Below are positions 26,555-48,250 of a stretch of 64,000 bases of DNA, in pieces. The stretch comes from a phage. Each line of letters starts with the position of its first letter. Position 1 is the stretch's first letter. Made by a program: the position numbers and the translations under genes. The DNA lies in the NCBI GenBank assembly GCA_033664045.1, contig GCA_033664045.1_3674.1, one strand, 5' to 3'. Under the pieces are notes generated by a model. That model was not told the DNA's origin and made no database searches. It worked only from the letters and a program-made list of their open reading frames with translations.

Positions 26555-29500
26555 ATGCTTCCAATCCCTTTGCTAAAACTTGGTCGTCATTTCCTCGATA
26601 AGAGGGGTGGAATTAAGGAACTTGCTGTTCTGTCATACCCAATAGACAACAGTGATGGCACAAGCACTACAGTACCCTATGTAAATAGCTTAGCTATACT
26701 TTTTGATGATGGTCAACTTAATATCACGGGCTATAACAGGTTCGGAGAGTGCCGCACTGGGGATCTTGACACGATAAACTACCCCAACGAGGCTGCCTGG
26801 AACGTTGATCATGTGTGGAGAGCAGACCGCGCGTTTGTGATCCGAACTTTTGATAACCAGTTTTTCTACATCGGCTGCACTGCAGGGCTTATCGGGTCTG
26901 ATGCTGCAGGCGGTAATGATGTTTGTGTAAGAGAGTGGACACCTCTCCCTGAACAGATTGTTAAAGGGTTGCACCTTGACACACACCCAGAGCGCCTTGT
27001 TGAGGTGATGGGTGGTATTAACAACACTATTTGGGTTATTGCAGAGGCAGAAGGCACTGGCATACTGAATCTGTATGGATCTGGTAACAACACCTACGGA
27101 TCTTTGCATGTAGATAAAAACCAGCATGCAACTCCTGTAAAGATTGGTGAAACATCGGAAAATCCTGAAACAGGTCCTTGGAAAAACCCAAGCATCAACT
27201 GCGAGGTGCATGACAACTCTGTTATTTTCGGCGGTCCTAGAGGTTTCTGGATTGCTGGATACGACTTTCTGAGAAACAACAGTAGAAACGACCTTGTTTG
27301 GCCTCCTGTGCAGATTACTCGTAACGATTTGAGAGGCATTCCTGCAGATGAGGAGTGGAAAGGGTTTATGTGTGGTCCTAACGGGGCAATAATTGCCACA
27401 CAGAGGATGCACAAACCCAATGACCAGCAGCTTGTTAACGTATTCTACGGGCAAGACGTCTGGGGAGATGACACATGGCGTTCCTTAAATATCACCTACA
27501 CTCATGAGGTGATAATGGCTCGTGGATACGGCACAAGTGGCATTTTCTTCAATAATGGCACTAAGCAGTATCGTGGATTCTCTCGCAACTTGTGTAATGA
27601 TATTGGTGCACAATCTGCAAACAATAGCCCTAGGGCTAATTTTATTCACTATCAGGCTCTGGCTACGGCTAAATACGTCGAGCAACGTCTGCCAGTTAGC
27701 TGGACAGAGAGTGTTTATTTCCAAGGCATCCACAGAGAAGGTTTCTTAGGGACCTTTACTGTTGTTAATGGCAAACTTTGGTGGTCAGGCATCCCAAGGG
27801 GGAGTTTTGCAGGCTCTAACAACCTGTTTGGCGGCAGACTTAATAGTCAGGGGTTCACAGAGGTTCCTGAGAATTGGTATAAAAATGTCCCGGTAGACAG
27901 TTGGGGTGTTGATGATATTTTCGACGTTAACGGTGTTAGCAGCGTTAGCAATATTTACATTGGTGACACGGTCAAGATGAAATTGAAGCCTCAGCCAGAG
28001 GGAGCTACGTTCATTATTGACAAGATTGAACTGGTAAATGCTGCAGGTACGGTTGTTACAGATGCAAATTACCAATTCTCCACCAACTGGAACCACGGCG
28101 GGGCCAACGAGGTTGTTGTTACCCAGTATAACAGAAATGTTAACAGACGTGGCCTGTACTCTGTAAAAATAACCTATCATGACAAGCATGGCACAGGCAG
28201 AACCCATACGACAAGAACTTTGAACTGGAACACCATAGTTCCTGCGTATCCGTCCAACGGCAAGTGGCATACTGTCGGTAGAAACAAACAGTTCCATGTC
28301 AACGATACTGTATACTTCGGGCTTAACGCAGCTCAACCTGTTGTAGAAGGCGATACATCGTATATGGTACGACTCCATAGAATGGATGCCGGGTCTGTAA
28401 CCTACGATGTGACTCAAGAGATCTACGATCAGAGACGTACTACGTATGACAATGTTGTGAAAACACAAGCCTTGTGGGAGTTCAACCCTAACGGCAGAGG
28501 CGGTAAAATGTTGCAGGTCAACGAGCAAAACGGAACATCGTTGACTGTCCATGAGCATCCAGATCCTTGGCCTGATCCTGGAAAACCTAACTCTGGTGCT
28601 CGTACACTGAAAATTGTCAGCCATGATGCAGGATATTTCGGAATACGCTGGGAAGCTACAGTAAGATATGCCGACGGGACAACAAACAACATAGGGATTA
28701 CACTTGGCGGCACTAGTGAAGATAACTCACTGAAAATTGCCTACACCCCTAGAGGCATCTCTATTGACAATATGGATGTTGTTCGCAACGGTTACGGCGA
28801 TGTGAATGTCAAAGTTACTCTTGGCGAACATCTTGGTGGGGAAAGGATCATCATGTATGCCTTTGATCATGACCCTCGCACCAACGGAACCTATGCAGAC
28901 CAGGCGTGGAGTTACCTGATAAGCGCACCTGAGCCAAATACTAAAGAATTCTACTACGGTATGAAGCGAGATGTGTGCAAGAAAACAGGGACACATGACT
29001 GGATTGCGATCTGTGTTAAAGATGAACGCACCGCTTGGAACGAGCCTGTTAACAGATGGTTCATAGGTATTCCCACCCGAAGTGATAAATACGTTGAAGA
29101 ATATATTGTGTGCATGGGCGGCACCAACCTTAATATGTGTTGGAACGAGGATGCAAACAACAAATACTCTGATTATGACTATATGCGGGACTATTCTTGC
29201 AATCAGTGGTTTAACCAACCTGGATATGCTGATCGACAGGCAAGAGTGAATCCTGCAATCTTCACAGATACTCAGGTTTTCTTGACAAAACAGGCTAACG
29301 AGGTTCAGACCTTCAAGAACAAATATGACCCTAACAAGTGGTTTTATAACTGTTATGGCGCATTTTTCTGGGGCCCAGGGGAACTACCTGGTGGTGGGTC
29401 TTGCTTCGAGGCTGCAACTTACGCCAGTGACAGATTCATGGGGCAGGTCAAGAAGTACAAGATAATTCCAGGGCCTGAAACTTTGGGTAATGCTGTTGAT

Positions 29501-32194: not shown

Positions 32195-32224
32195 AAAAAG
32201 GGGCCAAACGGCCCCTTTCTTTTT
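32195..32224. terminator. bidirectional rho-independent terminator at the strand switch
   Basis: aaaaaggggccAAACggcccctttcttttt; A-run upstream and T-run downstream, between convergent stops at 32182 and 32229. Confidence 0.75.
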
Positions 32225-35906: not shown

Positions 35907-36170
35907 TCAGAAACCCTCTAAAAAGCTCTTGTAGAAAATAATTTCAGTATCAACACCAGTCACGATCTTGTCGTTCCTGATTTCATCGGTAAGATAGGTG
36001 TCAAAACGCAGAACCTGTGTGGTATTGTCGCACATCCACTCAGCTGTGACCATGGCGAAAATCTTAGCATCTTCATTATCTGGTGTAAATGTTACCACCT
36101 CACCACATTTAAATTTTTCGATAGGTTGCGTGTTAGCTTTCGGTTCTGCAATAGTGATTTTCGTGGTCAT
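35907..36170 (-). CDS. small hypothetical protein (87 aa)
   Basis: TAATG overlap with the upstream gene. Confidence 0.4.
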   Translation of the reverse strand: MTTKITIAEPKANTQPIEKFKCGEVVTFTPDNEDAKIFAMVTAEWMCDNTTQVLRFDTYLTDEIRNDKIVTGVDTEIIFYKSFLEGF

Positions 36171-36427
36171 TACTCTTCCTCCATAGTTTCACCAAATACT
36201 TCGATACGAGCATCGAGCTCGGTTGCTTTCAGCTCCCCAACAAAGTATTTTAGTTCTTTCTCGTCCAGATCGTAAGCCCACACACAAGAAGAACATGCAG
36301 ATTTCACAATCAGCAGCGTAGATACACGACCTGACTCTGTGATCATGCTCACAATGGTTCCCACAGGGAACGTGTTGATAGCTTTTTTAACTGGGCGTTC
36401 AGCTTTAATTACTACCTCTGTTGCCAT
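36170..36427 (-). CDS. small hypothetical protein (85 aa)
   Basis: Track ORF trimmed to Met4, which has AGAGAGGATG upstream. Confidence 0.4.
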   Translation of the reverse strand: MATEVVIKAERPVKKAINTFPVGTIVSMITESGRVSTLLIVKSACSSCVWAYDLDEKELKYFVGELKATELDARIEVFGETMEEE

Positions 36428-36442
36428 AAATAACATCCTCTC

Positions 36443-37903
36443 TTACTTAGCGTACTCGATTAATTCCACAGTTTTCCCAAAGCTAGGGATATAATTTTTA
36501 TTATACCCTTCGGTGAGAACCCATAAAGTATCGTACTTTTTCCACTTGTTGTCAACAGCCTTTTGTTCAAAGTTATGCTCAAAGTATAGGTCGGTCAGGA
36601 CGATGACATCTTTTGCATTTGGTATGTTGGCATCCAGATACTCGAACACGCAAGCAGCTGTTGTGCCCCATGTTGAGTGGACCTCATAGTTGATCATCTC
36701 GTCTATGTTGCCGCGAGTATATACTTTAACCTCTCCGACTTCAGTTGACCAACAGAACATTGTAACCTTAAACTCTTTATACAGATTGCACAATCCGGTG
36801 ATTTCATTGAACATTTTCTTTAAAGTTCTTTGAGAGATCGAGCCAGAAACGTCTAAAGCTACCACAATATCTATGGTGTTTTCCGGATTACGACCAGGAA
36901 CAATAACGTGCTGGTTCTTGTTTATAGCCCCAACTTTTCGCATTGTGCTGGTCAAAGACCCAGATCGGCGACCAGGTTTTCTGTAGGTCAGTTCAGCCTT
37001 TCGTTTAGACAACATGCGTTGCTTAATGATGTCTATATAGTTGATTACAGGCTTGCCTCTGTTCTTGACAAACTCACGCACCGCCTCAGGGCAACGGCCT
37101 CCGGACGCTTGCATTGCTGCTTCCAGCATGTCACCAGAGTCTTGCATGGCCTGATCTTTATCAGATTGGCTGATTACAGGTTGTGGCTGATCATACCCCA
37201 TAGCCTTTCCAAGATCATCACTGGTACCACCGTTCCCACTCATGTGATCATCTGTTTGTCGCTTATCTCCTTGAGAGTTCTCACCTTTACCGCTCTTATT
37301 TTTACCGTTATTCTGATCTCTTTGCTTATCAAGAACTGCATAGACGTTCTCAGCAATCCATCCATGAAACCTCATGTCGCAGTAGCAGCTGGCTAAGAAA
37401 CCAAAAGGCTTACCTTTCACGAACGTAGTGCTTTTCCCCTTCGGGAAGAAAACACAAGGAGGCTTGCTAAAGTCAACCACAAGTCCTGTGTTGATAACGT
37501 GATCACAAGCAATATTGAACAGTTCCGGCTCAAAGCTTTTACCACGGACCAGGTGATCACAGATAATATGCCCCACCTCATGCGACAGAAGAAAGGCCAC
37601 CTCTTTCACAGATTTTGGGGAATAGAAAACTTCAGCCATCTCAAACTGCTCGTTAGTTAGAGAGGCCTTAAGAATAGCCTTGCGTTCATCAGCCAACCCC
37701 ATAATGAACTCAGGACTGTAATAGATACGTTTATGGTCGGTTGCCATGGTAGAGCACCATGTGTGGTTCTCTACGAACTGCAACCCTGACAGTAGTGTGC
37801 CATAAAACGGCAGCTTTTCAAGAAGATACATACGTGCAGCCTGCAACATTCTCAGGGCATCATCTTTCTGTGAGGCAATGATTTCTGAACTTCTGCTATC
37901 CAT
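36443..37903 (-). CDS. vWA-domain protein with N-terminal zincin-like metallopeptidase domain (DUF2201-like; CobT-like)
   Basis: HExxH in LLSHEVGHIICDH; MIDAS-type DxSxS in IVVALDVSGSIS; track start trimmed to the ATG after the upstream terminator hairpin. Confidence 0.7.
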   Translation of the reverse strand: MDSRSSEIIASQKDDALRMLQAARMYLLEKLPFYGTLLSGLQFVENHTWCSTMATDHKRIYYSPEFIMGLADERKAILKASLTNEQFEMAEVFYSPKSVKEVAFLLSHEVGHIICDHLVRGKSFEPELFNIACDHVINTGLVVDFSKPPCVFFPKGKSTTFVKGKPFGFLASCYCDMRFHGWIAENVYAVLDKQRDQNNGKNKSGKGENSQGDKRQTDDHMSGNGGTSDDLGKAMGYDQPQPVISQSDKDQAMQDSGDMLEAAMQASGGRCPEAVREFVKNRGKPVINYIDIIKQRMLSKRKAELTYRKPGRRSGSLTSTMRKVGAINKNQHVIVPGRNPENTIDIVVALDVSGSISQRTLKKMFNEITGLCNLYKEFKVTMFCWSTEVGEVKVYTRGNIDEMINYEVHSTWGTTAACVFEYLDANIPNAKDVIVLTDLYFEHNFEQKAVDNKWKKYDTLWVLTEGYNKNYIPSFGKTVELIEYAK

Positions 37904-37904
37904 T

Positions 37905-37931
37905 AAAACTCCAGAAGGGGCCAATGGCCCC
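37905..37931 (-). terminator. intergenic hairpin terminator (minus strand)
   Basis: ggggccaATggcccc palindrome directly after the stop at 37937-37939, followed on the minus strand by UUCUGGAGUUUU. Confidence 0.45.
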
Positions 37932-37936
37932 TGTCA

Positions 37937-38926
37937 TTATTTAACGTGTTTGAAAATACCTGCCAACTCGGTCATTGTCATGCGGGTGGTCTTCATAAGG
38001 TCTGTCATAGCCTTCTCCATAATTGGAGATACTACCATAAAGTTACCCTTGGTGAAACCTTTATTCCAGTCGGTCACTAATAGTGGTTTAAGTCCGACCC
38101 CGAGACGCTCACCAGTTAAAGCACAACATTTTCGAATGTACGTGCTCTTAAATTGACTGAATGACAGATCAACTTTCATACCTGCATCGTAGAACGTCTG
38201 ACAATAGAAAGTGTAAGCTTTGGCAATCTCAACATCGTCAGGCAGTGCAGGAACCTCTTCTGTGAGCTCTTCTTCGTCCCCTTGAGGCTCTTTTTCCTCT
38301 TCGTAAGCCTGTTGCGCCACTTCTTTAATCTCCTCTGCTGCAGGCTCGTTTACAATGTCAGAAATGTGCTTGTTGGCTCCACGGTTAGCCATGAAGTTTT
38401 TAAAATCCTGCATTGGTGACATATCTTCCTCCCATTCTTCGTCAAAGAGTGCCAGTTTATCCTCTTCCGTCCCATATTGCAAGATGAAATCTTCAAAAGT
38501 GTAATCACCTTTCAATTTCTCCATGCGCTCTTCGCTCAGGTGGAGCATCATCTGCTGGACAATTTTTCGATCAGTTTTGTCTTTAATCAAGATTGCGGTC
38601 TTTTTATCTACCAGGCAGTCTTTCAGAGAGTTACACCTCAATCCTACCACACAACAGTTATCAATTGCGTAAGGACCTTCATCATCTATCCGCTCCAGAG
38701 ATGGGTAGAAAGGATTCCCCAGCCCGTTTTCATCTGTGTGCATGTCGAAAGGTATAAGGGTATAGTCGCATACCCCCTCTCCTAAAAGTTTTTTACCAAA
38801 TAGGAGGTATTCTTCCCATGACAGGTTGAACTCTATATCTCGTTTCCGTGCATTATTTTGTTTGCGTCTGTATTTTTTGAGCAGGCGCTCTAACTCTTCT
38901 GGTGTATAATATTTTTCAAGATTCAT
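37937..38926 (-). CDS. protein with two degenerate HNH-like (His-Me finger) motifs
   Basis: SLERIDDEGPYAIDNCCVVGLRCNSLK and LVTDWNKGFTKGNFMVVS resemble the C..CG...DRID..GY..NV...CN..K pattern; start placed at Met66 so the gene clears the divergent promoter region. Confidence 0.35.
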   Translation of the reverse strand: MNLEKYYTPEELERLLKKYRRKQNNARKRDIEFNLSWEEYLLFGKKLLGEGVCDYTLIPFDMHTDENGLGNPFYPSLERIDDEGPYAIDNCCVVGLRCNSLKDCLVDKKTAILIKDKTDRKIVQQMMLHLSEERMEKLKGDYTFEDFILQYGTEEDKLALFDEEWEEDMSPMQDFKNFMANRGANKHISDIVNEPAAEEIKEVAQQAYEEEKEPQGDEEELTEEVPALPDDVEIAKAYTFYCQTFYDAGMKVDLSFSQFKSTYIRKCCALTGERLGVGLKPLLVTDWNKGFTKGNFMVVSPIMEKAMTDLMKTTRMTMTELAGIFKHVK

Positions 38927-38957
38927 AAGTTGTCTCTTGTGCCCTGTAGGTGAAGAA

Positions 38958-38986
38958 ATCTTATCAAGTGCCTCGACAGATGTCAA
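38958..38986 (-). promoter_or_regulatory. sigma70-like promoter TTGACA-N17-TAAGAT with TGn (minus strand)
   Basis: Plus-strand tgtcaa at 38981-38986 and atctta at 38958-38963; drives the minus-strand cluster. Confidence 0.55.
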
Positions 38987-38999
38987 CCTCAAAAACGTG

Positions 39000-39028
39000 T
39001 TGACTTTACTATAAATCCACGATATAGT
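39000..39028 (+). promoter_or_regulatory. sigma70-like promoter TTGACT-N17-TATAGT
   Basis: Hexamers at 39000-39005 and 39023-39028; RBS AGGAG and ATG at 39069. Confidence 0.6.
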
Positions 39029-39068
39029 GCACCCATTCGAAAGAAAACGAACACAGGAGCACTTAATC

Positions 39069-39968
39069 ATGGCAAATCTTAACAGCTTTAGCACTCGGTG
39101 GAAACAAGATATCACAACCAATCTCTCAGCAGGTGATATCCTTTCTGCAATTTACGAGGCTTTGGATGATAAAGCTACTTCAAAATCGGTTTGTACCAAC
39201 CCGCTAATTCCTGTAGTAATGAAGGTTATTGAGCGTAGGCTGGTATCCGGATCTGATAAGTGGACATATCTGGATAATGGAGGCCACACTTACTCCAACG
39301 GCTATGTCGATATAAAAGTAGAATATGCGGTATCATATCGCCGGAGCGGCTCTGTAACTTTCAACTTCTCTGGTGGTTTCCGATCTCTGGCAACTTCACC
39401 TTTTGTTTCCTCAGAGGAGAAGTTTGAACTTCCGTTCCTTTGGATGATGGCTAACGCGACAGGCAAAACCCCTGTAAGCATTCGCGTAAAATACAACTAC
39501 AATGGATCTAGTAAGATCTATGCCGAGAGTGTCTCAGCAAGTTTTTATTTTGTGATGGGGGATGGAATCCTCAAACATATAAAGATGTGTGATATGCATG
39601 ATGTTATAAATGAAGTGACTGATAAGAATGTTCTGGTGAAGGATCTCAACAATTTTTATACACCGGGAGACTATTACGTCAACCGTCCACTGTGCATCTT
39701 TAATGCTGCACACCCTTTAGGTGAGTATTTGATTGCCAATAGTGATATTGCCAATAACCGCTTCGAGGTATCAAGAGTACAGAATGAGGTGTTGACATCT
39801 TGCAAGAGCGGTGATAAGTTTACCGAAGAAGAGATGGGTGTTTTAGAGATGATGGGATATAAGTGTAGCCTTTGGGTAGATGAGGTGTTTAATGACGGCA
39901 TCTATGGACAGGATATTTACCCGTTAAAGAAGTACACTGATTCCAGTTTAATTTACGCGGAGATTTGA
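39069..39968 (+). CDS. hypothetical early protein (about 300 aa)
   Basis: Track ORF trimmed to Met15, which has AGGAG upstream and lies downstream of the promoter. Confidence 0.5.
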   Translation: MANLNSFSTRWKQDITTNLSAGDILSAIYEALDDKATSKSVCTNPLIPVVMKVIERRLVSGSDKWTYLDNGGHTYSNGYVDIKVEYAVSYRRSGSVTFNFSGGFRSLATSPFVSSEEKFELPFLWMMANATGKTPVSIRVKYNYNGSSKIYAESVSASFYFVMGDGILKHIKMCDMHDVINEVTDKNVLVKDLNNFYTPGDYYVNRPLCIFNAAHPLGEYLIANSDIANNRFEVSRVQNEVLTSCKSGDKFTEEEMGVLEMMGYKCSLWVDEVFNDGIYGQDIYPLKKYTDSSLIYAEI

Positions 39969-39970
39969 CT

Positions 39971-40243
39971 ATGATGAAGTCATGTGGTAGTGTATATTAT
40001 GTTGGTGAGAATGTTCAGGCAGATAGTGTGTGGAAATCCATTAAGTCCACCACCGATGATGCCTTCTTGAGCGGGTTATGTTTCCCCAATCCCGGAGACA
40101 TTCTCCCTCACCCTGGGGATTTTGTTGTCAACAAGACGGACGGTTATACAGTGTGCCTGATGGTTGAAAAAATCTTTTTAGACACTAGACACAATCACCG
40201 TCTTGTGTTAAAATTTCAAGAATGTAAAATGACAATTGCCTAA
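39971..40243 (+). CDS. hypothetical protein
   Basis: ATG 3 nt after the upstream stop; GGAG about 10 nt upstream. Confidence 0.4.
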   Translation: MMKSCGSVYYVGENVQADSVWKSIKSTTDDAFLSGLCFPNPGDILPHPGDFVVNKTDGYTVCLMVEKIFLDTRHNHRLVLKFQECKMTIA

Positions 40244-40256
40244 GGAGGCCTTACCT

Positions 40257-40613
40257 ATGTCTAAAGTTACTTATCGTGCAGCTATTTACTGCAATGAGCA
40301 CCCAATCAATAATGATGGTCACTGCCTTTTTAAAGAAAATCAGTTGGGCTGCATTGTCCTCCCTGATGAAGGGGAAGGTTATCTGATTGCATTGACAGGG
40401 TTTGAGCCTGAAGCTCTGGAAGCCAATCTGGACTACCTGGTGGAAGAGGGTGCTGCAGACTTGGTTGCCAATGGCCTCTCTGTAAGCCTTGACGAAGTGG
40501 AGCGCTTCATGGGCAATTACCGTGTAGTGCGTGAGTTTACTATCGAGGTGGAAACTCCAGAGTGGGGTAGCACTGAAACTAATGCCGAAGAAAAAGAAGA
40601 GGAGGTAGAATAA
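40257..40613 (+). CDS. acidic small protein with poly-Glu C-terminus
   Basis: RBS AGGAGG; Asp/Glu-rich, ends EEKEEEVE. Confidence 0.45.
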   Translation: MSKVTYRAAIYCNEHPINNDGHCLFKENQLGCIVLPDEGEGYLIALTGFEPEALEANLDYLVEEGAADLVANGLSVSLDEVERFMGNYRVVREFTIEVETPEWGSTETNAEEKEEEVE

Positions 40614-40870
40614 TGAAAGTACAGATCTTGACTAATGCCGAGAAGATGTTTATTGAAGATACACCTTTTGAAGCTGGTGAGCTCCAGTTTGTTTATTTTG
40701 TTGACTTAGATAAGGTGTTTCCTGCACTGAATCTGGGTCTGGATGAAGTTCCTCATAAGGTTTTGTGTCAAGTTGTTCGTGCCTTAGCGGCAGATGGAGA
40801 GTTCCACACCCTTCAAGATATCCAGACCTACGGGTATCTTGAACTACAACGAGAAGAAGAGGTGAACTGA
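40613..40870 (+). CDS. acidic small protein
   Basis: TAATG-coupled; RBS GAGGAGG. Confidence 0.45.
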   Translation: MKVQILTNAEKMFIEDTPFEAGELQFVYFVDLDKVFPALNLGLDEVPHKVLCQVVRALAADGEFHTLQDIQTYGYLELQREEEVN

Positions 40871-40872
40871 TA

Positions 40873-41253
40873 ATGGCCCGGTGGAAGACAACAGTTGACC
40901 TGCATGATCAGTGGTTAGGACGCATCACTGAAGACGGGAAACTAGCGGAGTGGGACAATAAGCATGTTAGCGAGTTGGCAAGCATTGTGGCTGGCAAGTT
41001 ACGCTCCAAGTTCCCTGAACAACTGAATCCTGATAGTTCAAAGTTCGATCCTGAGTTGGAGGATGTTGTATACTACTTCGATACCGTGGATGACTACGAT
41101 GCGTGGCTTGCAGCACGGGAGCTTTACCCACAAGGCTCTGCTATGCGCCAGATGGAAGAAGATTATCCTCCGTGCGAGCAATTTAATAGCGCAATGACTT
41201 GCCTCTACGATTGGGCAGATAAGAACCTTGTCTGGATTCGGACTGCATTCTAG
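40873..41253 (+). CDS. acidic hypothetical protein
   Basis: RBS GAGGTG; Asp/Glu-rich. Confidence 0.45.
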   Translation: MARWKTTVDLHDQWLGRITEDGKLAEWDNKHVSELASIVAGKLRSKFPEQLNPDSSKFDPELEDVVYYFDTVDDYDAWLAARELYPQGSAMRQMEEDYPPCEQFNSAMTCLYDWADKNLVWIRTAF

Positions 41254-41268
41254 CAGGCGGTGGCAAGG

Positions 41269-41562
41269 ATGCCACTTAAAAGAGTAATGAACATGTTATA
41301 CCAGAAACACGAACTTTGTGCAGAAAAAGAGTTAAATTTTGACAAAGTTATCCACAGATATTGTTATGGAAAAACCGGAAGACAACTAAGAAGATGCACT
41401 CCAGCATTCTTTCACCCCAGCAGGCGGCTAAGTCCTGAAGAGGCGACAGCAGAAAGGGTTGCATACAACTGGGAAGTTGTGTACGATATTGACAGATCCG
41501 ATGTGACATCTGTTTTGGAAAACTTTGAAAACACTTACACACAAGTAGAGGACTTTTACTAA
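41269..41562 (+). CDS. hypothetical protein
   Basis: Track GTG start trimmed to the ATG at 41269. Confidence 0.4.
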   Translation: MPLKRVMNMLYQKHELCAEKELNFDKVIHRYCYGKTGRQLRRCTPAFFHPSRRLSPEEATAERVAYNWEVVYDIDRSDVTSVLENFENTYTQVEDFY

Positions 41563-42746
41563 TGTCAAGAAACGTATTTGAAAGTGGTCAAATCACTGTC
41601 CGTGAGTTGCCAGCTATCATTCAGTTCGCCCAGCGTCATAACCGATCTGTCCTGATTTTAGGACCAATGGGCGTGGGTAAGAGCCAGGTGATGAAGCAGA
41701 TTGCAGATAATATGTTCGGTGAGCGAGATGACAACCTGGTTGACGTGCGACTGTCAGATAAAGATCCTGCTGACTTATCTGGGCTACCTATCCCTGTAGA
41801 AGCGGATGGAACTACACGTACAGTGTTTGCAATTCCAGAATTTTGGCCTGCAGATCCGGACTGGAGCGGAATTATCTTTCTAGATGAGCTTACCCATGCA
41901 GATAATTACCTGCAGAAGGTTGCAATGCAAATTATGCTCGACCACAAGTGCGGCACTTATGCATTCCCTAAGGGCTCTGTTTTTGTAGCTGCAGGTAACC
42001 GTTCTACAGATGGTGCTGTTCTTTCAGCGCTTGAAGCACCTCTGGCTAACCGCTTTATCATTGTAGAGGTTACAAGCAATGCAGAGGTGTTTATTGAGGA
42101 CTATGCATTCCTCAACGGGGTGCACTCCTCTGTAATTGGGTATTTGAAAAGAGTTCCATCAGCTATCGATAATTATGAGGCTATGGCTGAGATTAATTGT
42201 CCATCTTTTGCCACACCGCGATCTTGGGTTGCTGCATCTGATATCTTGCACGATTTTGACAGCGGTATTATTTCTGACGCTATGGCCCGTGTTCTTCTGC
42301 AAGGTGCTATTGGTCACACTGCAGCGGTAGAGATCTGGACTTACCACACCAAAAAACGCAACTTACCGGAAATCGGTCGGATTATGGCAGGAGGTTGCAA
42401 AGAATACGTAGGTCCTAAACAGCCAGACATCTTGTGGATTCTTGGATCTGAAGGTTGTATCGCTATTCGTAATATGATGGAAAATGCAAGTATCTCCGAC
42501 GAAGATCTTGTTAGCTGTGTGGCAAACTTCCTCGATTTCCTTTGGGAAAATTTCAAGGACGAGAACCGAGATTTTGTATTCTCAGTCTTTATGGCGATGA
42601 TGAAACCTAATGCCTTAGGAAATGCCTTGCTTATCGGTAAAGGGCGTGACAAGATTGTTGCTCAGCTGATCAAAGCATACCCAAACCTGATGAAGATTGT
42701 AAAAGAGTTTGGTGAAGAGTTTAGCGCCATTTTGGCTAAAGCTTGA
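41562..42746 (+). CDS. MoxR-like AAA+ ATPase (AAA_5/CobS-like)
   Basis: Walker A GPMGVGKS, Walker B IIFLDELTHAD, sensor region AAGNRSTDG. Confidence 0.7.
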   Translation: MSRNVFESGQITVRELPAIIQFAQRHNRSVLILGPMGVGKSQVMKQIADNMFGERDDNLVDVRLSDKDPADLSGLPIPVEADGTTRTVFAIPEFWPADPDWSGIIFLDELTHADNYLQKVAMQIMLDHKCGTYAFPKGSVFVAAGNRSTDGAVLSALEAPLANRFIIVEVTSNAEVFIEDYAFLNGVHSSVIGYLKRVPSAIDNYEAMAEINCPSFATPRSWVAASDILHDFDSGIISDAMARVLLQGAIGHTAAVEIWTYHTKKRNLPEIGRIMAGGCKEYVGPKQPDILWILGSEGCIAIRNMMENASISDEDLVSCVANFLDFLWENFKDENRDFVFSVFMAMMKPNALGNALLIGKGRDKIVAQLIKAYPNLMKIVKEFGEEFSAILAKA

Positions 42747-42755
42747 GGAGGTTGT

Positions 42756-43136
42756 ATGGCTAAAGTAGGTAAGCGGGGAAACTACTTGGTAGTATTGACC
42801 GAGGAGCCGGAGAAGGAGTACGAATGCAGCTCCACTTGCGTGATCGATATCCGAGAAAAAGATGTAGATGAAATCTGGTTTGAAATATTAGATGCTTGCG
42901 ACAGCAGTGATTATTTCTTCATCTATGTCAACGATAAAGCTGGGTTCTTCCATGACGACGGAGAGTTGCCGTATGAAATCTATGAACTTGTAGAGGCTTG
43001 CCATCGTGGAGATGCGGAGTTGTTTGGCTTACGGCTGAAAAGCGGTAAATTCTTCTATCAAGATGAGTGCATGAATCTTCATAACTTTGTAGAGGGAACT
43101 TGCAACGATGGAGAGATTTTGGCACACTACGATTAA
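42756..43136 (+). CDS. acidic Cys-containing hypothetical protein
   Basis: RBS GAGGAGG. Confidence 0.45.
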   Translation: MAKVGKRGNYLVVLTEEPEKEYECSSTCVIDIREKDVDEIWFEILDACDSSDYFFIYVNDKAGFFHDDGELPYEIYELVEACHRGDAELFGLRLKSGKFFYQDECMNLHNFVEGTCNDGEILAHYD

Positions 43137-43148
43137 TTTCTAAGACCA

Positions 43149-43175
43149 CCCCGCTTCGGCGGGGATTTTCTATTT
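43149..43175 (+). terminator. rho-independent terminator with TTCG tetraloop
   Basis: ccccgcTTCGgcgggg followed by attttctattt; same hairpin type as at 11499 and 17006. Confidence 0.7.
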
Positions 43176-43184
43176 GGAGTTATT

Positions 43185-43685
43185 GTGAAAATTAAGATCT
43201 TTGCTATTATTTTGAGCGCATTTTTATCGCTGCCTGTTGTTGCAGCACCAAAACAAAAAGTATACCATACTTGCAAGCCATCAGATACTAAGGAAAACAT
43301 TCTAGCATGCAATATCTACAGGGAAGCTAGAGGGGATGGCACGATGGGTATGCTGGCATCTGGGTTTGCCACATTAAACAGGAAATCTCACCCTAAATAC
43401 CCAGACACTATAAGAAAGATTGTCTACCAGCCTAACCAGTTTTCGTGGACAAACCACGGCAAAACTTTTAAGGTGACAGAAAAAGATTCATGGGATCACG
43501 CTAAAAGTCTTGCAAAGATGCTTCTAAAGGTCTACAATAACAACCATGTTGCATACATGGCTATGGACATAACAGGTGGAGCAACACACTACCATACAAC
43601 CAAAGTACGACCGAAATGGGCAAAAAAGATGCAGAGGACAGCTCAATTCGGGAGTCATATCTACTACAAGGAGCGCAATAAATGA
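43185..43685 (+). CDS. SleB-like cell-wall hydrolase with N-terminal signal peptide (candidate exported endolysin)
   Basis: GTG start; signal-like N-terminus KIKIFAIILSAFLSLPVVAAP; Hydrolase_2 signature CNIYREARGDG...ATLNR. Confidence 0.6.
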   Translation: MKIKIFAIILSAFLSLPVVAAPKQKVYHTCKPSDTKENILACNIYREARGDGTMGMLASGFATLNRKSHPKYPDTIRKIVYQPNQFSWTNHGKTFKVTEKDSWDHAKSLAKMLLKVYNNNHVAYMAMDITGGATHYHTTKVRPKWAKKMQRTAQFGSHIYYKERNK

Positions 43686-45664
43686 TTGTAAACAGTAATG
43701 AAACTAAAGCAGTACTAACCGGAAATATGGAGGTCACCAGGGGCTCAATTTCTCTGAACAAAGAGACTTTTGGGCTAATCATTAAAGGGATTTACGAAGA
43801 TAAGGTGCTGGCAAGCTGCCGTGAACCAATCTTCAATGCTGTGGACTCTCATGTTGAGTCTGGACGGAGTGATGTACCGATCATCATTCACTCTCCTACA
43901 GACCTTGAACCATACTTCTTTGTGCAGGACGTTGGATTGGGCATGTCAGAAGAGATGGTCCGCAACACGTTCATGAACCTTGGAGAGTCAACCAAACGCA
44001 ACAGCAACGCCCTGGTAGGTAATAAAGGTGTTGGCTCAAAGGCTCCGTTCAGCATGGTGGACACTTTCGATGTTATCAGTGTGCACAATGGTGTTGAAAG
44101 CACATATCTATTGTTCTTGGATCAGGGTATCCCAAACGTTACCAAGATCCGAGAGCGGAAGACTGAAGAGCACAACGGGGTAAAAGTTCAGTTCCATGTT
44201 AAGAAAGAGCATGTCCTGAAATATCGCACCGCTATTGCATCATGCCTACGCTATGCAAAATTCCCGTTCACCGTCACTGATCCGATGACGAGCAAGATGC
44301 TAGAGGGTGACAAGGTAGAGGCGCAATACTATTACGAAAAAGATGGTTGGAAGATGACCATCTTGAAGGGCTATACCAGCTCTGACGAGAGTCGTGTGGT
44401 AATGGGCCACCAACCTTACCGCTCTAAGTTCCTGGAGACATTGACCGATTACCCTGCAATCTGCGTGGAAATTCCTATTGGGGATTGCAATATTAACCCT
44501 GGGCGTGAATGGACCATAGAGGGCCATGACGACGGTGGATTCCAGGATCGCCTGGAGGCCTTTGTCAAAGAAGGTATACGTCTTCGCGGGGCAGAAGTTG
44601 TTGCAGAACTGGAGACGGCAAAAACCTCCGCAGAAGCACGTGAGATGATGAAGAACAGTGGAGTGTTCGGGCACATCTTCGGTAAGAATTTTATGTGGGA
44701 CCGATGGGAAGAGACAGGACTAGGAAGTTTGGGAGATTGTGAGATCTTCGCTGGAGGCTTAAATAAAGGCCGCATAGGTTACGCTTGTTACGGAAAGGTA
44801 GAATTCTTACGGGGAGTCTATTTAGTATTTAACGACGGAGACGGCAAATATAACCGAAATAAGTGTAACTACTTAAGCGAGATCACCGGACGCAACGTTT
44901 TCTATTGCCGTAACACGGATCTGGTGAAAGAGTTTAAAGAGGCGGCACACCATCCGTTCTTTGCAGATACGGTAAAATTGTTATCAGAGCTACCTCGCCG
45001 ACCTGCGAAGAAAGGTGAAACAAAAACTCATTATGAGCCAGGTTATTGGGTTAAAAAACTTGAGAAGGATGGTTACTTCCGTCGTGAGCGTATTACTAAG
45101 GCAGAGTTCAAGAAGATTAAGCACTGCATTCCTTATGAGGGTGATATCCAACGTGGAAGTTGTTGGCTGGGACAGCTGAGTAACATCTACCAGCAAAATT
45201 ATGATCGTGTGCGTGCGGCACTCCAGATTCCTGAAGGGGAAGATCTGTACCTGGTATCAGAATCCCGTCTGCTTTGGACTGATCCTGATTGCCAGTATGT
45301 TACAGAGAAAAATGTGGAACATTTGTTGAAAGAGGACGCCTGGAAATTCTTACTGACTCGCGCAGCAAATGAAACTTCATATGACAGCCTGTATAGACAA
45401 TTAGGGAAAATTATCCCCATGCAAGATTTTGGAAATTATCGGCCACATTTCCACAAGTGGGAAGGTAACACCGCGTGGAAGCACAGTGAGCTAAATCATC
45501 GTGCCAAAATCTTAATCGCCAACCGAGTCAAGTGCGGGAAGGCCTATATTGCAAGATTGGAAAAGAAATACCCACTTTTGAAGCATGTAGGCTTGAAATA
45601 TTGGGACACTCCTGCTATGATTGAATACCGTGAACTGATCGATACAAAGAATAACATCAAATAA
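43682..45664 (+). CDS. rIIA: rIIA-like protein (N-terminal GHKL-type ATPase fold)
   Basis: N-box-like IFNAVDS, G1-like FVQDVGLGMS, G2-like GNKGVGSKAPFS; colinear with T4 rIIA as I recall it. Confidence 0.6.
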   Translation: MIVNSNETKAVLTGNMEVTRGSISLNKETFGLIIKGIYEDKVLASCREPIFNAVDSHVESGRSDVPIIIHSPTDLEPYFFVQDVGLGMSEEMVRNTFMNLGESTKRNSNALVGNKGVGSKAPFSMVDTFDVISVHNGVESTYLLFLDQGIPNVTKIRERKTEEHNGVKVQFHVKKEHVLKYRTAIASCLRYAKFPFTVTDPMTSKMLEGDKVEAQYYYEKDGWKMTILKGYTSSDESRVVMGHQPYRSKFLETLTDYPAICVEIPIGDCNINPGREWTIEGHDDGGFQDRLEAFVKEGIRLRGAEVVAELETAKTSAEAREMMKNSGVFGHIFGKNFMWDRWEETGLGSLGDCEIFAGGLNKGRIGYACYGKVEFLRGVYLVFNDGDGKYNRNKCNYLSEITGRNVFYCRNTDLVKEFKEAAHHPFFADTVKLLSELPRRPAKKGETKTHYEPGYWVKKLEKDGYFRRERITKAEFKKIKHCIPYEGDIQRGSCWLGQLSNIYQQNYDRVRAALQIPEGEDLYLVSESRLLWTDPDCQYVTEKNVEHLLKEDAWKFLLTRAANETSYDSLYRQLGKIIPMQDFGNYRPHFHKWEGNTAWKHSELNHRAKILIANRVKCGKAYIARLEKKYPLLKHVGLKYWDTPAMIEYRELIDTKNNIK

Positions 45665-45674
45665 GGAGACCAAG

Positions 45675-46880
45675 ATGATTTTCATCTACGAACATTTCAA
45701 AACCCGTAAAGAAGCACGAGACCGCCGTGCAGAACTGGAGAAAAAGGGTTTCACATGTGCCATTGAGAAAGGCGACACAACCTGGACACTGGCAGTGGGT
45801 GCCCCAGAGTTGTTCGATCCTGACCGTGACAGCGTCTGCTACACCCGTGAGGATTTTGAAACCCGCGAAGAGGCCCGTTTATTTCGATATGGTCTGGAAG
45901 ATAACGGCAAGTACGCTATGATCTTAGATTTAGGCGAAGGTTCCGTTAAACGTTGGGGCGTGGTATATCCCCTGTGTGTTGTTCACGGTGTGGGGTTCAC
46001 TGGGGTGGCAATCAAGTCAGAAGAACCTTTAGTAGAAGTCAAAGATCCGGTGCTGGAGGTGGTGAGCAGTGTGTCTCAGCAACAGACTCGAAGCATCGAG
46101 CCTTTGGTAGTTATTTGTGGGGAACTCCTCCAGATCACCTGCAACGAAGGTATTTTTGAAATTCGCCGCAGTGAAAGTGAGGAAGTTTACCAGAAAGTCT
46201 TCGACCATATCTCTGTTCAGGAATATGATGAGGCAATTGGTGAAATCCTTGTCTGGCTGGAACGCAAGAATGAGTTCACCACACTTGCAGACAACCTGAT
46301 CATGAAAGATGGTAAGCTCTACTACTACGGTGTAGAGATGCGATCCACCATTGCAAAGAAAATTGAGAAAGACTATGCAGACGGAACACTGGATGACCGC
46401 TATGTGAAATTCCTCGTTCGCCTGCTACGCAATCCTTCTGCAAAATCTGTAAACATGCTCTACGATTTTATGCAGGCCAACGATATCCAGATTGCAGAAG
46501 ATGGTCGAATCGTTTGCTACAAAGGTGTTCAGTTTAACGGCAGCAAGTGGGTGGATTGGCACAGTGGTAAAGTTCCACAATACCAGGGTGCTTTTGTATC
46601 CATGCCTCGTAACTTTGTAGAGGATGATCCGGAAGCTGCGTGCTCCTATGGCTTACACTGCGCCAGCAAAGAGTATGCAAAAAGCTACGGCACTGTAATG
46701 ACTGTTATGGTTGACCCTGCAGATGTGGTTAGTGTGCCATACCAACACAATAGCGCCAAGTGCCGTGCATGCCGCTATGAGATTGTGGTAGCTCCGGAAG
46801 CACGCAAGGACGGAGACCCGATTGAATACGTGGTTGACAGAGATGGTAACACTATCGACATTCTTTACGAGGAGGTGTAA
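45675..46880 (+). CDS. rIIB: rIIB-like protein
   Basis: Immediately downstream of the rIIA-like gene; C-terminal pattern MPRNFVEDD...GLHCASKEY...VVSVPY...AKCRACRYE resembles rIIB from memory. Confidence 0.5.
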   Translation: MIFIYEHFKTRKEARDRRAELEKKGFTCAIEKGDTTWTLAVGAPELFDPDRDSVCYTREDFETREEARLFRYGLEDNGKYAMILDLGEGSVKRWGVVYPLCVVHGVGFTGVAIKSEEPLVEVKDPVLEVVSSVSQQQTRSIEPLVVICGELLQITCNEGIFEIRRSESEEVYQKVFDHISVQEYDEAIGEILVWLERKNEFTTLADNLIMKDGKLYYYGVEMRSTIAKKIEKDYADGTLDDRYVKFLVRLLRNPSAKSVNMLYDFMQANDIQIAEDGRIVCYKGVQFNGSKWVDWHSGKVPQYQGAFVSMPRNFVEDDPEAACSYGLHCASKEYAKSYGTVMTVMVDPADVVSVPYQHNSAKCRACRYEIVVAPEARKDGDPIEYVVDRDGNTIDILYEEV

Positions 46881-48250
46881 TGGAAAAAGGGCAGTATGAT
46901 GTAGGCACAGATGCTGCCCTCGTTGCAATCATGAGCGGTGAGAATGTCTTCGTTTCAGGACCCGCAGGTTGTGGGAAGACGTACCTCATCAACATGATCC
47001 AGTCAATGTATGGAGACTCTTGCATAACGGTTGCCCCGACAGGGGTAGCCGCTTTAAACGTTAATGGAGCAACAGCACACCGAACCTTCGATCTTGCAGC
47101 AGGTGTGAGCATGGAGTCAGACTGGACCGCAATAAGGGCAAAAACAGCAAAGCCTTTGAAAAGCAAGGCATTTACCATCCTAATTATCGATGAAATCTCT
47201 ATGATCCGTGCTGATAAGTTTATAGAGATGGATAGGAAACTTCGCTTCCTTCGAAAAAATGACAAACCTTTCGGAGGCATACAGGTCATATTGTTTGGCG
47301 ACTTTTACCAGGCACCTCCTGTTGTCTCTTCTATGGAGAAGGAAGCCTACTTCAACTTCTACCATACGGACCTGTGTTGCTATACCGAATCTTGGAAAGA
47401 GCTTGACCTCCACAACATAGCCCTAGTAGATCAGTTCCGACAGGAGTCTATTCGATTTGCCACAATGCTCAACTGTGTTCGTGAGGGTCGTCGCATAAAA
47501 GAGGTTGTAGCAGAGCTTAATGCTCGCTGTTACAAAGGCGGTGTACCAACAGACGCTCTCACAATTTGCGCCACCAACAAACAAGCAGAGGAAGTGAACA
47601 GAAGGTTCTATGATGCCATCAACGCCCCAGAGAAGGTATACACTGGTGAAATGAAGGGTAAGTTTCCCTCCACCCTACCAGTTGAGCAGGAGATGAAGTT
47701 GAAAATTGGCATGAAAGTTATGATAACCGCCAACGATGTTGACCCAACGCACAAAGTACCTTATTATGTTAACGGAACACGTGCCACAATTGTTAAATTT
47801 AAGAACAAGGCAGTGGTGGTAGAGCTTGAAGATGGAACACAGGTTGACATAGAGCAGATGTTGTGGGAGAATAACGAATATAAGCCATCTCAGAGATACA
47901 ACATTGCAGAAAGGAAGATGGAGAAGTTTATAGAGAGGGTAGTGATCGGGTCATATAAGCAACTCCCTCTGAAATCTGGGTACGCCGTAACATCTCATAA
48001 AAGTCAAGGACTTACACTAGATTGTTACAACCTAGACCTTGGAAAGAACGGAGCTTTCTCTCCTGGGATGACGTATGTCGCTTTGAGTAGAGTTAAGACA
48101 ATACAAGGAATAAACTTGTTGCGTCCACTAAGAGAGGTTGACATTATTGTTGACCCGCGAGTCGTAGAGTTTTACAATACAACATTCCCTGACTTAGACA
48201 AAATTGTCAGGAAAGATTTTGAAACCAGAGCCGAAGAGGGGGACGTATGA
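46880..48250 (+). CDS. SF1B DNA helicase (Dda/RecD/Pif1-like)
   Basis: Walker A SGPAGCGKTY, Walker B ILIIDEISM, C-terminal VALSRVKT. Confidence 0.75.
   Translation: MEKGQYDVGTDAALVAIMSGENVFVSGPAGCGKTYLINMIQSMYGDSCITVAPTGVAALNVNGATAHRTFDLAAGVSMESDWTAIRAKTAKPLKSKAFTILIIDEISMIRADKFIEMDRKLRFLRKNDKPFGGIQVILFGDFYQAPPVVSSMEKEAYFNFYHTDLCCYTESWKELDLHNIALVDQFRQESIRFATMLNCVREGRRIKEVVAELNARCYKGGVPTDALTICATNKQAEEVNRRFYDAINAPEKVYTGEMKGKFPSTLPVEQEMKLKIGMKVMITANDVDPTHKVPYYVNGTRATIVKFKNKAVVVELEDGTQVDIEQMLWENNEYKPSQRYNIAERKMEKFIERVVIGSYKQLPLKSGYAVTSHKSQGLTLDCYNLDLGKNGAFSPGMTYVALSRVKTIQGINLLRPLREVDIIVDPRVVEFYNTTFPDLDKIVRKDFETRAEEGDV

Follow-up and report, generated by a model that had tools for sequence, protein, structure and literature searches.

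A co-inherited MoxR-type ATPase and peptidase-vWA gene pair, split around a promoter region in an rV5-like phage, as a candidate two-part counter-defence machine

We analysed a 64,000-nt stretch of phage DNA (contig GCA_033664045.1_3674.1 of NCBI GenBank assembly GCA_033664045.1; hereafter, the window), in which a gene for a MoxR-class AAA+ ATPase and a gene for a DUF2201 protein, combining a zincin-like peptidase domain with a von Willebrand factor A (vWA) domain, lie on opposite strands and diverge from a common promoter region. Comparative analysis identifies the two genes as a pair that is inherited together in three large groups of virulent phages; it is normally adjacent, whereas here it is split. 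The data are best explained if the two proteins would act jointly, as two subunits of a phage MoxR-type AAA+/vWA machine, and we lean, with modest confidence, towards an early-expressed, two-part, ATP-driven remodeller or protease serving counter-defence, with a mechanism modelled on NorQ–NorD.

The ATPase and DUF2201 genes form a co-inherited pair

Region 36000–43200 of the window matched 122 phage records at 90–97% nucleotide identity, 115 of them with a coverage of at least 80%. Near-identical isolates share 95–97% nucleotide identity with the window, and Escherichia phage phita32 encodes an ATPase 100% identical in protein sequence to the one found here. These matches place the window in an rV5-like phage (genus Vequintavirus), a virulent phage of E. 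coli. Both open reading frames (ORFs) of the original prediction were found at the positions it gave (Table 1), 3.6 kb apart on diverging strands, with 3,658 bp between the start codons. The program-made ORF of the DUF2201 gene reaches back to a TTG at 37924, giving a 493-aa ORF.

The view that the two genes are usually neighbours holds well beyond the window. On a 1.25-Mb bacterial contig, an AAA_3/AAA_5 ATPase gene is located 46 nt upstream of a gene for a DUF2201_N+DUF2201 protein, and the pair is also adjacent on a 155-kb phage-like contig, on a 146-kb phage contig and in N4-like phages, where it corresponds to gp24 and gp25 of phage N4. In tblastn searches against phage records, the DUF2201 protein was found in 634 records and the ATPase in 813, and the counts by host genus nearly coincide (DUF2201 protein and ATPase, respectively: Escherichia, 211 and 214; Pectobacterium, 26 and 26; Cronobacter, 17 and 17; Campylobacter-labelled, 16 and 16). 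Records with the pair span Vequintavirinae, N4-like phages and several jumbo phages. Moreover, identity to the window proteins co-varies between the two across eight lineages (r = 0.91). Collectively, adjacency elsewhere, matching distribution and co-divergence argue that the two genes form a pair. Within Vequintavirus, where the genes are split, both are under strong purifying selection, with ratios of nonsynonymous to synonymous substitution (dN/dS) of 0.007–0.054 at dS of 0.11–0.22 (0.007–0.021 for the ATPase alone). The pair belongs to the core genes of N4-like phages, Vequintavirinae and several jumbo phages, and few phage gene pairs that lack an assigned function are as widespread as MoxR/vWA pairs.

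The ATPase is assigned to the MoxR class

The original prediction expected a Pfam AAA_5 (PF07728) match for the ATPase, but the score of 16.7 bits (E = 0.0075) falls below the gathering score of 22, and neither AAA_3 (PF07726) nor any other AAA family reached its Pfam gathering score. The MoxR type itself is nevertheless recovered through homologues. The ATPase matches 360-aa proteins carrying PF07726, PF07728 and sometimes PF20030 (E ~1e-45, 35% identity), as well as PHROG 1297 (1.4e-110). Since these Pfam families are carried by the homologues and not by the ATPase above cut-off, the link to MoxR families is transitive rather than direct. In an alignment of 60 homologues, residues G37, G39, K40, S41, D108, E109, N146, R147, R164 and R220 are invariant, which covers Walker A, Walker B, sensor 1, the arginine finger (two arginines) and sensor 2.

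The predicted structure is in agreement with this assignment. The AlphaFold2 model (predicted local distance difference test score, pLDDT, of 84) comprises an AAA+ core and a lid followed by an extra C-terminal helical domain of ~120 aa. In the model, a helix-2 insert is formed by strands 75–81 and 84–90 following helix 69–73, and a pre-sensor-1 hairpin by short paired strands at ~128–134, ahead of beta-4. When the model was compared with solved structures by Foldseek, the top 17 matches were all NorQ (including NorQ–NorD complexes) and CbbQ chains, with E = 1.5e-8 and TM-scores of 0.58–0.65 normalised to the target. Taken together, the families of the homologues and the predicted fold place the ATPase in the MoxR class (helix-2-insert clade). 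A single-sequence search of solved structures gave P-loop matches only, and the ATPase profile matched midasin AAA modules at only 1e-10.

The partner is a DUF2201 protein with zincin-like and vWA domains

[quoted passage not shown] The two Pfam families, DUF2201_N and DUF2201 (PF13203 and PF09967), were matched above their cut-offs in N-to-C order: DUF2201_N at E = 6e-28 (98.6 bits, cut-off 23.2; residues 95–321) and DUF2201 at E = 3.6e-11 (43.7 bits, cut-off 26.4; residues 353–488, both in the numbering of the 493-aa ORF). The predicted architecture is an N-terminal zincin-like domain, a linker and a C-terminal minimal vWA domain of ~140 aa; the linker (aa 203–227) is disordered, of low complexity and variable in length. 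In an alignment of 38 homologues with identities down to 19%, H108 and H112 of the HExxH motif are invariant, as are N130, D134 and N138 downstream of it; E109 and the downstream residue H117 are conserved in at least 90%. All five MIDAS residues, D351, S353, S355, T414 and D438, are invariant as well, and profile comparison aligns DVSGS with DGSGS of the integrin alpha-X I domain. Profile matches of the N-terminal domain were weak (minigluzincin MJ1213, E = 0.012; M48 peptidases HtpX and BepA, E = 0.08–0.3). A single-sequence search of solved structures with the DUF2201 protein returned no match, and a profile search with the DUF2201 alignment, limited by its word pre-filter, gained only 11 further relatives. 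Some homologues carry the CoxE-type VWA family PF05762.

A different label is attached to this family in several places. PHROG 1314 and the family's proteins in many RefSeq phage records, such as N4 gp25 (L012 3165–4307) and those of slur16, LIT1, LUZ7 and several Vibrio phages, are called 'HNH endonuclease'. The Pfam scan of the DUF2201 protein found no HNH family, only DUF2201_N and DUF2201, and the label looks like a propagated misannotation.

The split layout is shared by three genera and looks derived

As had been proposed, the two genes belong to diverging transcription units around a promoter region. The strand switch is a 142-bp intergenic region (38927–39068) with two back-to-back sigma70-like promoters, the -35 hexamers of which are 13 bp apart (Table 1). 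The hexamers of both promoters are conserved in BP9, Bas53 and Bas58, although the spacer sequence differs in Bas58. Seunavirus 4MG and Mydovirus VIK251 have a promoter of the form TTGACA-17-GATAAT (11 of 12 matches), which is directed at the arm with the DUF2201 gene. From the sigma70-type hexamers and the gene content, we infer that the promoter pair is early.

Between the anti-sigma-like and DUF2201 genes of the leftward arm, the sequence can form a GC-rich hairpin (37916–37932). The T-run that follows it is poor on the minus strand (TTCTGGAGTTTT), and the hairpin may be a weak terminator or attenuator. As such, it could damp read-through, yielding less of the vWA partner than of the upstream gene product.

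The split is not peculiar to this phage: by gene order, it is common to Vequintavirus, Seunavirus and Mydovirus. In Seunavirus 4MG and Mydovirus VIK251, one arm bears the ATPase gene, and the other bears the anti-sigma-like gene with the DUF2201 gene after it. By contrast, in Certrevirus DU_PP_IV, phage W70 and two metagenomic contigs, both genes are on one strand, just downstream of the diverging promoter region; in such same-strand relatives, the genes are 36–167 nt apart or have zero to four small genes between them. The original prediction had taken the split to imply coordinated early expression without translational coupling, but the lack of coupling does not mark the split: same-strand relatives already have the two genes separated by 36–167 nt or by two to four small genes, so the absence of coupling here says little.

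Two neighbouring genes serve as markers for how the layouts are related. A gene for an HD 'metal dependent phosphohydrolase' was found in Seunavirus (L008 4106–4615), W70 (L010 3503–3964), Certrevirus (L011 2988–3266) and a metagenomic contig (L007 9058–9531), and an annotated HD-phosphohydrolase gene occupies the same position in Mydovirus VIK251. Where present, it is in every case located between promoter and ATPase gene, irrespective of the orientation of the block; in the window it is missing, with unrelated small genes in its place. Hydrolase_2 lies across the promoter from the ATPase gene in two loci (L006 and L007) and two genes downstream of it here. The positions of these two markers suggest that the promoter-proximal block was inverted. 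The gene downstream of DUF2201 stays with DUF2201 across the layouts. The split thus looks like a conserved, derived layout of the three genera, which would have arisen by inversion of the promoter-to-ATPase block in their common ancestor; after such an inversion, both genes would still lie within 1–2.5 kb of the same promoter region. A model in which the anti-sigma-like gene derives from the opposite arm, as its first gene in flipped orientation, was considered and rejected, as W70, DU_PP_IV, L006 and L007 hold no homologue of this gene. It was probably acquired separately, and the lack of a counterpart in same-strand genomes implies events besides the inversion. The split as such is of minor evolutionary interest, namely, that the pair tolerates separation while both genes stay near the same promoter region.

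Genetics of the probable Bas54 orthologues suggests a possible role in counter-defence

Transposon-sequencing data for the related phage Bas54 are given in a 2025 preprint (bioRxiv 10.1101/2025.11.20.689424). The Bas54 gene table matches the window gene for gene (Table 1). On E. coli K-12, insertions were recovered at 81 of 86 TA sites of bas54_0055, the metallopeptidase gene, and at 60 of 64 sites of bas54_0063, the MoxR ATPase gene, and both were called non-essential (10.1101/2025.11.20.689424). On the clinical isolate CFE311, bas54_0063 mutants fell from a mean count of 148.7 to 0.0 (log2 fold change, log2FC, -7.23; q = 0), and bas54_0055 mutants from 219.7 to 47.2 (log2FC -2.20, ~4.6-fold; q = 0.009) (10.1101/2025.11.20.689424). 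Furthermore, DS-28, a two-gene predicted defence system of CFE311, was cloned into K-12, and knockouts of bas54_0063 and of bas54_0140, a 100-aa ORF, were each specifically sensitive to it (10.1101/2025.11.20.689424). The earlier statement that the function of the pair is unresolved is outdated for the ATPase, the probable Bas54 orthologue of which is needed against DS-28, while the suggestion of counter-defence gains from the same result.

The CFE311 figures come from a sheet headed 'K-12_vs_CFE303', the command line of which names the CFE311 library; an identical table stands under a CFE311 heading. In Extended Data Table 8, sheet S6 ('resampling_K-12_vs_CFE303') holds the CFE311 command line and numbers, which are repeated in S7, and the supplement file thus seems to lack the results of Bas54 on CFE303.

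Among other genes, bas54_0068, annotated as a DNA helicase, is non-essential on K-12 and nearly as depleted on CFE311 as the MoxR ATPase gene (log2FC -6.32, q = 0); the accessible main text does not discuss it. Conditional essentiality on CFE311 extends to several tail-fibre genes (10.1101/2025.11.20.689424).

Proposed mechanism and alternative explanations

In the NorQ–NorD system, a vWA loop enters the pore of the hexamer, the client is bound at the MIDAS, and hydrolysis of ATP exerts a pull on the linker (PMC13036017, PMC9976466). By analogy, the phage pair might work as follows. Host RNA polymerase would transcribe both arms early from the sigma70-like promoters at ~38.96–39.03 kb. The ATPase would form a hexamer and dock the partner's vWA domain in the way that NorQ does with NorD, and the MIDAS would capture an acidic residue of the target, either a DS-28 component or a host factor on which DS-28 depends. 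ATP hydrolysis would remodel the target or the linker of the partner, and the N-terminal zincin would then cleave the target or the partner itself. In its most specific form, which we put forward tentatively and hold to be less probable than the general proposal, the pair is an ATP-powered, MIDAS-targeted protease or unfoldase, made early to seize and to destroy or dismantle a component of DS-28. If true, this would be the first known AAA+/vWA machine in phage counter-defence, and a similar role would be suggested for the orthologues of N4-like and jumbo phages. Moreover, the locus may show whether a peptidase fused to a MIDAS adaptor removes host immune proteins.

Several points weigh against a joint machine of this kind. 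The main uncertainty is whether the partner is needed, given its much weaker phenotype: on CFE311 its mutants are reduced ~4.6-fold, compared with complete loss for the ATPase, which may act largely without it. The second gene required against DS-28 is bas54_0140 and not the DUF2201 gene, and the preprint does not follow up the depletion of the partner gene (10.1101/2025.11.20.689424); for DS-28, the only description found was 'small uncharacterised family, plasmid-associated'. Orthology to the Bas54 genes rests on gene order, numbering and lengths, and on identity to the siblings Bas53 and Bas58: amino-acid identity of the window proteins is 98.6–99.5% to Bas53 and Bas58 (99.5% for the ATPase) and 98.6–99.7% to all siblings compared. 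The N-terminal zincin fold is predicted from Pfam and the HExxH motif, together with the weak profile matches, and fold searches with the model of the full-length DUF2201 protein returned vWA matches only, with none for the N-terminal domain. Finally, the literature yielded no transcriptome for any Vequintavirinae phage, and the early timing is deduced.

In one alternative, the genes have become uncoupled in this lineage: the ATPase would counter DS-28 alone or with, for example, the bas54_0140 homologue, the DUF2201 protein would have a separate role, and the split would reflect this separation. The distance of 3.6 kb on opposite strands, the unequal effects on CFE311 (log2FC -7.23 for the ATPase gene and -2.20 for the partner gene) and the identity of the two genes validated against DS-28 are all in line with it. 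However, the partner is still significantly depleted on CFE311 (q = 0.009), both genes are retained in the whole of the split clade with their active sites intact and dN/dS under 0.06, their co-inheritance is strict across phage groups that are distant from one another, and every characterised MoxR ATPase acts via a vWA partner (PMC9976466). We consider uncoupling unlikely, if the least unlikely of the alternatives.

The classical role of MoxR proteins would be to mature or activate a metalloenzyme of the phage or host, by cofactor insertion or release of an inhibited state, as do NorQD, CbbQO and CoxDE, with sensitivity to DS-28 as an indirect consequence. NorQ and CbbQ are indeed the closest solved structures, and some homologues carry the CoxE-type VWA family PF05762. 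Genes of nucleotide and DNA metabolism (dCTP deaminase, thymidylate synthase and 5'-3' exonuclease) neighbour the pair in N4 and in loci L003–L005, and four other lineages share the HD metal-dependent phosphohydrolase gene as a conserved neighbour. This reading leaves unexplained the conserved HExxH peptidase domain of the partner, in place of which NorD, CbbO and CoxE have a target-specific adaptor; furthermore, the HD gene is absent from the window, which holds no candidate client. Both genes are dispensable on K-12 without a fitness cost, and the effect of the knockout is confined to a single cloned defence system, which makes metalloenzyme maturation improbable. For the pair in group 2.2 jumbo phages, Iyer et al. 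(2021, PMC7824862) proposed a chaperone for virion assembly with proteolytic processing of structural proteins, taking the MoxR/vWA pair of Acidianus two-tailed virus as the analogue. A DUF2201 gene adjoins those for HSP20, ClpS and ClpP on a 578-kb contig, and the conditionally essential tail-fibre genes on CFE311 could be taken in the same sense. Nevertheless, near-saturating insertions in both genes still give viable phage on K-12; the genes lie beside sigma70-like promoters among small genes of a non-structural kind, and the structural module, which ends at 32182, is separate from them; and the ATPase knockout shows its sensitivity when DS-28 is cloned in K-12, where adsorption and assembly are otherwise normal. 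Dispensability on K-12, non-structural neighbours and a DS-28-specific phenotype thus fit poorly with virion assembly here, to which we give the lowest probability of all. The joint counter-defence machine remains the reading that we favour.

Neighbouring genes and further observations

Table 1. Features of the window with positions and strands, and counterparts listed in the Bas54 gene table (bioRxiv 10.1101/2025.11.20.689424)
Feature	Position	Strand	Details	Bas54 counterpart
Tail-fibre gene	26555-32182		5.6 kb; structural module ends at 32182, minus-strand block begins beyond	
DUF2201 (peptidase-vWA) gene	36443-37903	minus	486 aa from ATG; GGAG 5 nt upstream of ATG	bas54_0055, metallopeptidase, 1461 nt
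DVSGS (DxSxS of MIDAS; D351, S353, S355)	36839-36853	minus	From translation; T414 and D438 complete the MIDAS	
HEVGH (HExxH; predicted zinc-binding/catalytic motif H108, E109, H112)	37568-37582	minus	From translation	
Perfect palindromic hairpin, GGGGCC-ATTG-GGCCCC	37916-37932		GC-rich; within the 33 nt that separate the anti-sigma-like gene from the DUF2201 gene	
Srd-like 'anti-sigma factor' gene	37937-38926	minus	First gene of the leftward unit, between promoter and DUF2201 gene	bas54_0056, anti-sigma factor
Leftward sigma70-like promoter	38986->38958	minus	TTGACA-17-TAAGAT with upstream TG; faces anti-sigma-like and DUF2201 genes	
Rightward sigma70-like promoter	39000->39028	plus	TTGACT-17-TATAGT; faces six small genes and ATPase gene	
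Six small genes, promoter to ATPase	39069-39968, 39971-40243, 40257-40613, 40613-40870, 40873-41253, 41293-41562	plus		bas54_0057-0062, small genes
MoxR-class ATPase gene	41562-42746	plus	394 aa	bas54_0063, MoxR ATPase, 1185 nt
Walker A, GPMGVGKS	41661-41684	plus	Read from DNA	
Walker B, FLDE	41877-41888	plus	Read from DNA	
Cell-wall hydrolase gene				bas54_0065
rIIA-rIIB	43185-46880			bas54_0066, 0067
DNA helicase gene	46880-48250	plus	Just after rIIB	bas54_0068

The anti-sigma-like gene matches PHROG 3118, 4592 and 1400, and it is annotated as anti-sigma factor in relatives; 4MG and VIK251 hold homologues with 40% identity at the same position. In the rightward arm, no Pfam families were detected among the six small genes (39069–41562), of which only 40873–41253 is shared with 4MG and VIK251. 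None of their Bas54 orthologues was depleted on CFE311 in the tables of the preprint (bioRxiv 10.1101/2025.11.20.689424). The last of them encodes 89 aa, overlaps the start of the ATPase gene in ATGA and matches PHROG 13164, labelled 'ATPase'. Its product was considered as a third subunit and set aside: it has no Pfam family, and the Bas54 orthologue, bas54_0062, was without effect on CFE311.

On the side of the structural module, GC skew changes sign at ~32 kb and ~39 kb, delimiting a block of minus-strand genes 6.7 kb in length. Where the tail-fibre gene and this block of small genes, which ends with the DUF2201 operon, converge, the junction is marked by a strong hairpin that is terminator-like in both directions (32195–32220; 11 pairs, with T-runs on either strand).

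In both the window and N4, rIIA–rIIB follow the MoxR/vWA genes by a few genes on the same strand (L012 7461–12076 in N4), at a distance of two genes here and of eight genes from gp25 in N4. This association, recurring in two unrelated phage families, may reflect a shared class of pre-late genes. A context unlike that of the window was found on a 578-kb metagenomic contig (L016 592–7591), where the DUF2201 protein is clustered with HSP20, ClpS and a ClpP-family protease, a protein-quality-control setting; the cluster is preceded by a 465-aa protein without a Pfam family.

Sixteen unannotated records named 'Campylobacter phage' (A135, A147, D1 and others; MG065690, MG065644), with C. jejuni given as host, are 95–97% identical to E. 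coli rV5-like phages over 36000–43200. Their host label seems doubtful.

Comparison with known systems

The original prediction likened the pair to CobS/CobT or to MoxR–vWA conflict systems, and neither comparison held. No CobT, CobS or CobN family of the cobaltochelatase was found in Pfam and NCBIfam scans of the pair and its neighbours. NCBIfam and PADLOC scans of the pair gave nothing meaningful, PADLOC matching the ATPase only at the level of P-loop noise and the partner not at all. The vWA–MoxR ternary conflict systems of Kaur et al. 2020 reportedly include a third component (VMAP, FtsH or beta-propeller) together with effector domains and are located in cellular genomes. No VMAP, FtsH or beta-propeller third component is present among the neighbours of the pair, and the genes sit in a virulent phage.

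NorQ–NorD and CbbQ–CbbO are the closest to the pair in the predicted fold of the ATPase and in the C-terminal MIDAS vWA domain of the partner, linked to an N-terminal domain; the same stoichiometry and docking logic would be expected for the phage pair. However, NorQ and CbbQ lack the extra C-terminal helical domain of ~120 aa. The N-terminal domain of the phage partner is a predicted HExxH zincin and its vWA domain is minimal (~140 aa), whereas NorD and CbbO have a target-specific adaptor and metalloenzyme clients. The bacterial MoxR–DUF2201 operon on the 1.25-Mb contig has the same pair of domains, with the ATPase gene directly upstream, but it is chromosomal and only ~21–24% identical to the window proteins.

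That such pairs occur in phages, as the original prediction stated, agrees with their description in jumbo phages (PMC7824862) and in N4-like phages, and with the annotation of both genes in near-identical genomes. Group 2.2 jumbo phages encode the same combination of MoxR and metallopeptidase–vWA proteins, with a proposed role in virion assembly with proteolytic processing (PMC7824862); the domain architecture is the same, and the homologues are 26–28% identical. In the jumbo phages and in Acidianus two-tailed virus, the pairs for which virion assembly was proposed are adjacent, whereas that of the window is split and that of Bas54 is dispensable on K-12. Furthermore, the pair of Acidianus two-tailed virus lacks the peptidase domain. 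N4 gp24 (AAA ATPase) and gp25 (vWFA), with their orthologues in N4-like phages, belong to the same families (27% and 22% identity, E = 8e-26 and 6e-18), and their function is listed as unknown (PMC2784036). As in the window, the N4 pair lies in a non-structural region with rIIA/rIIB nearby. Unlike in the window, the N4 genes are adjacent on one strand, encode shorter proteins (352 and 380 aa) and occupy a pre-late region upstream of replication genes, not beside a sigma70-type promoter pair.

The annotations of the near-identical genomes are 'metal-dependent peptidase' and 'MoxR-like ATPase' in BP9, and 'putative metallopeptidase' and 'MoxR ATPase' in Bas53 and Bas58. Already known are the genes, their family names and the diverging layout (from near-identical genomes), the presence of the pair in phages and the phenotype of the ATPase. 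Added here are that the split looks like a conserved, derived state of three genera, that the depletion of the partner is significant and had gone unremarked, and that the 'HNH endonuclease' label looks wrong. With the ATPase required against DS-28 and the partner mildly depleted on CFE311, a near-identical phage offers a genetic handle that makes the locus tractable for studying viral MoxR/vWA function. Indeed, the pairs of Bas54 (bas54_0063/bas54_0055), Bas53, Bas58, BP9 and rV5_ev168 belong to the same genus and share gene order, gene lengths (1461 and 1185 nt) and diverging layout with the window, from which they show no difference of substance.

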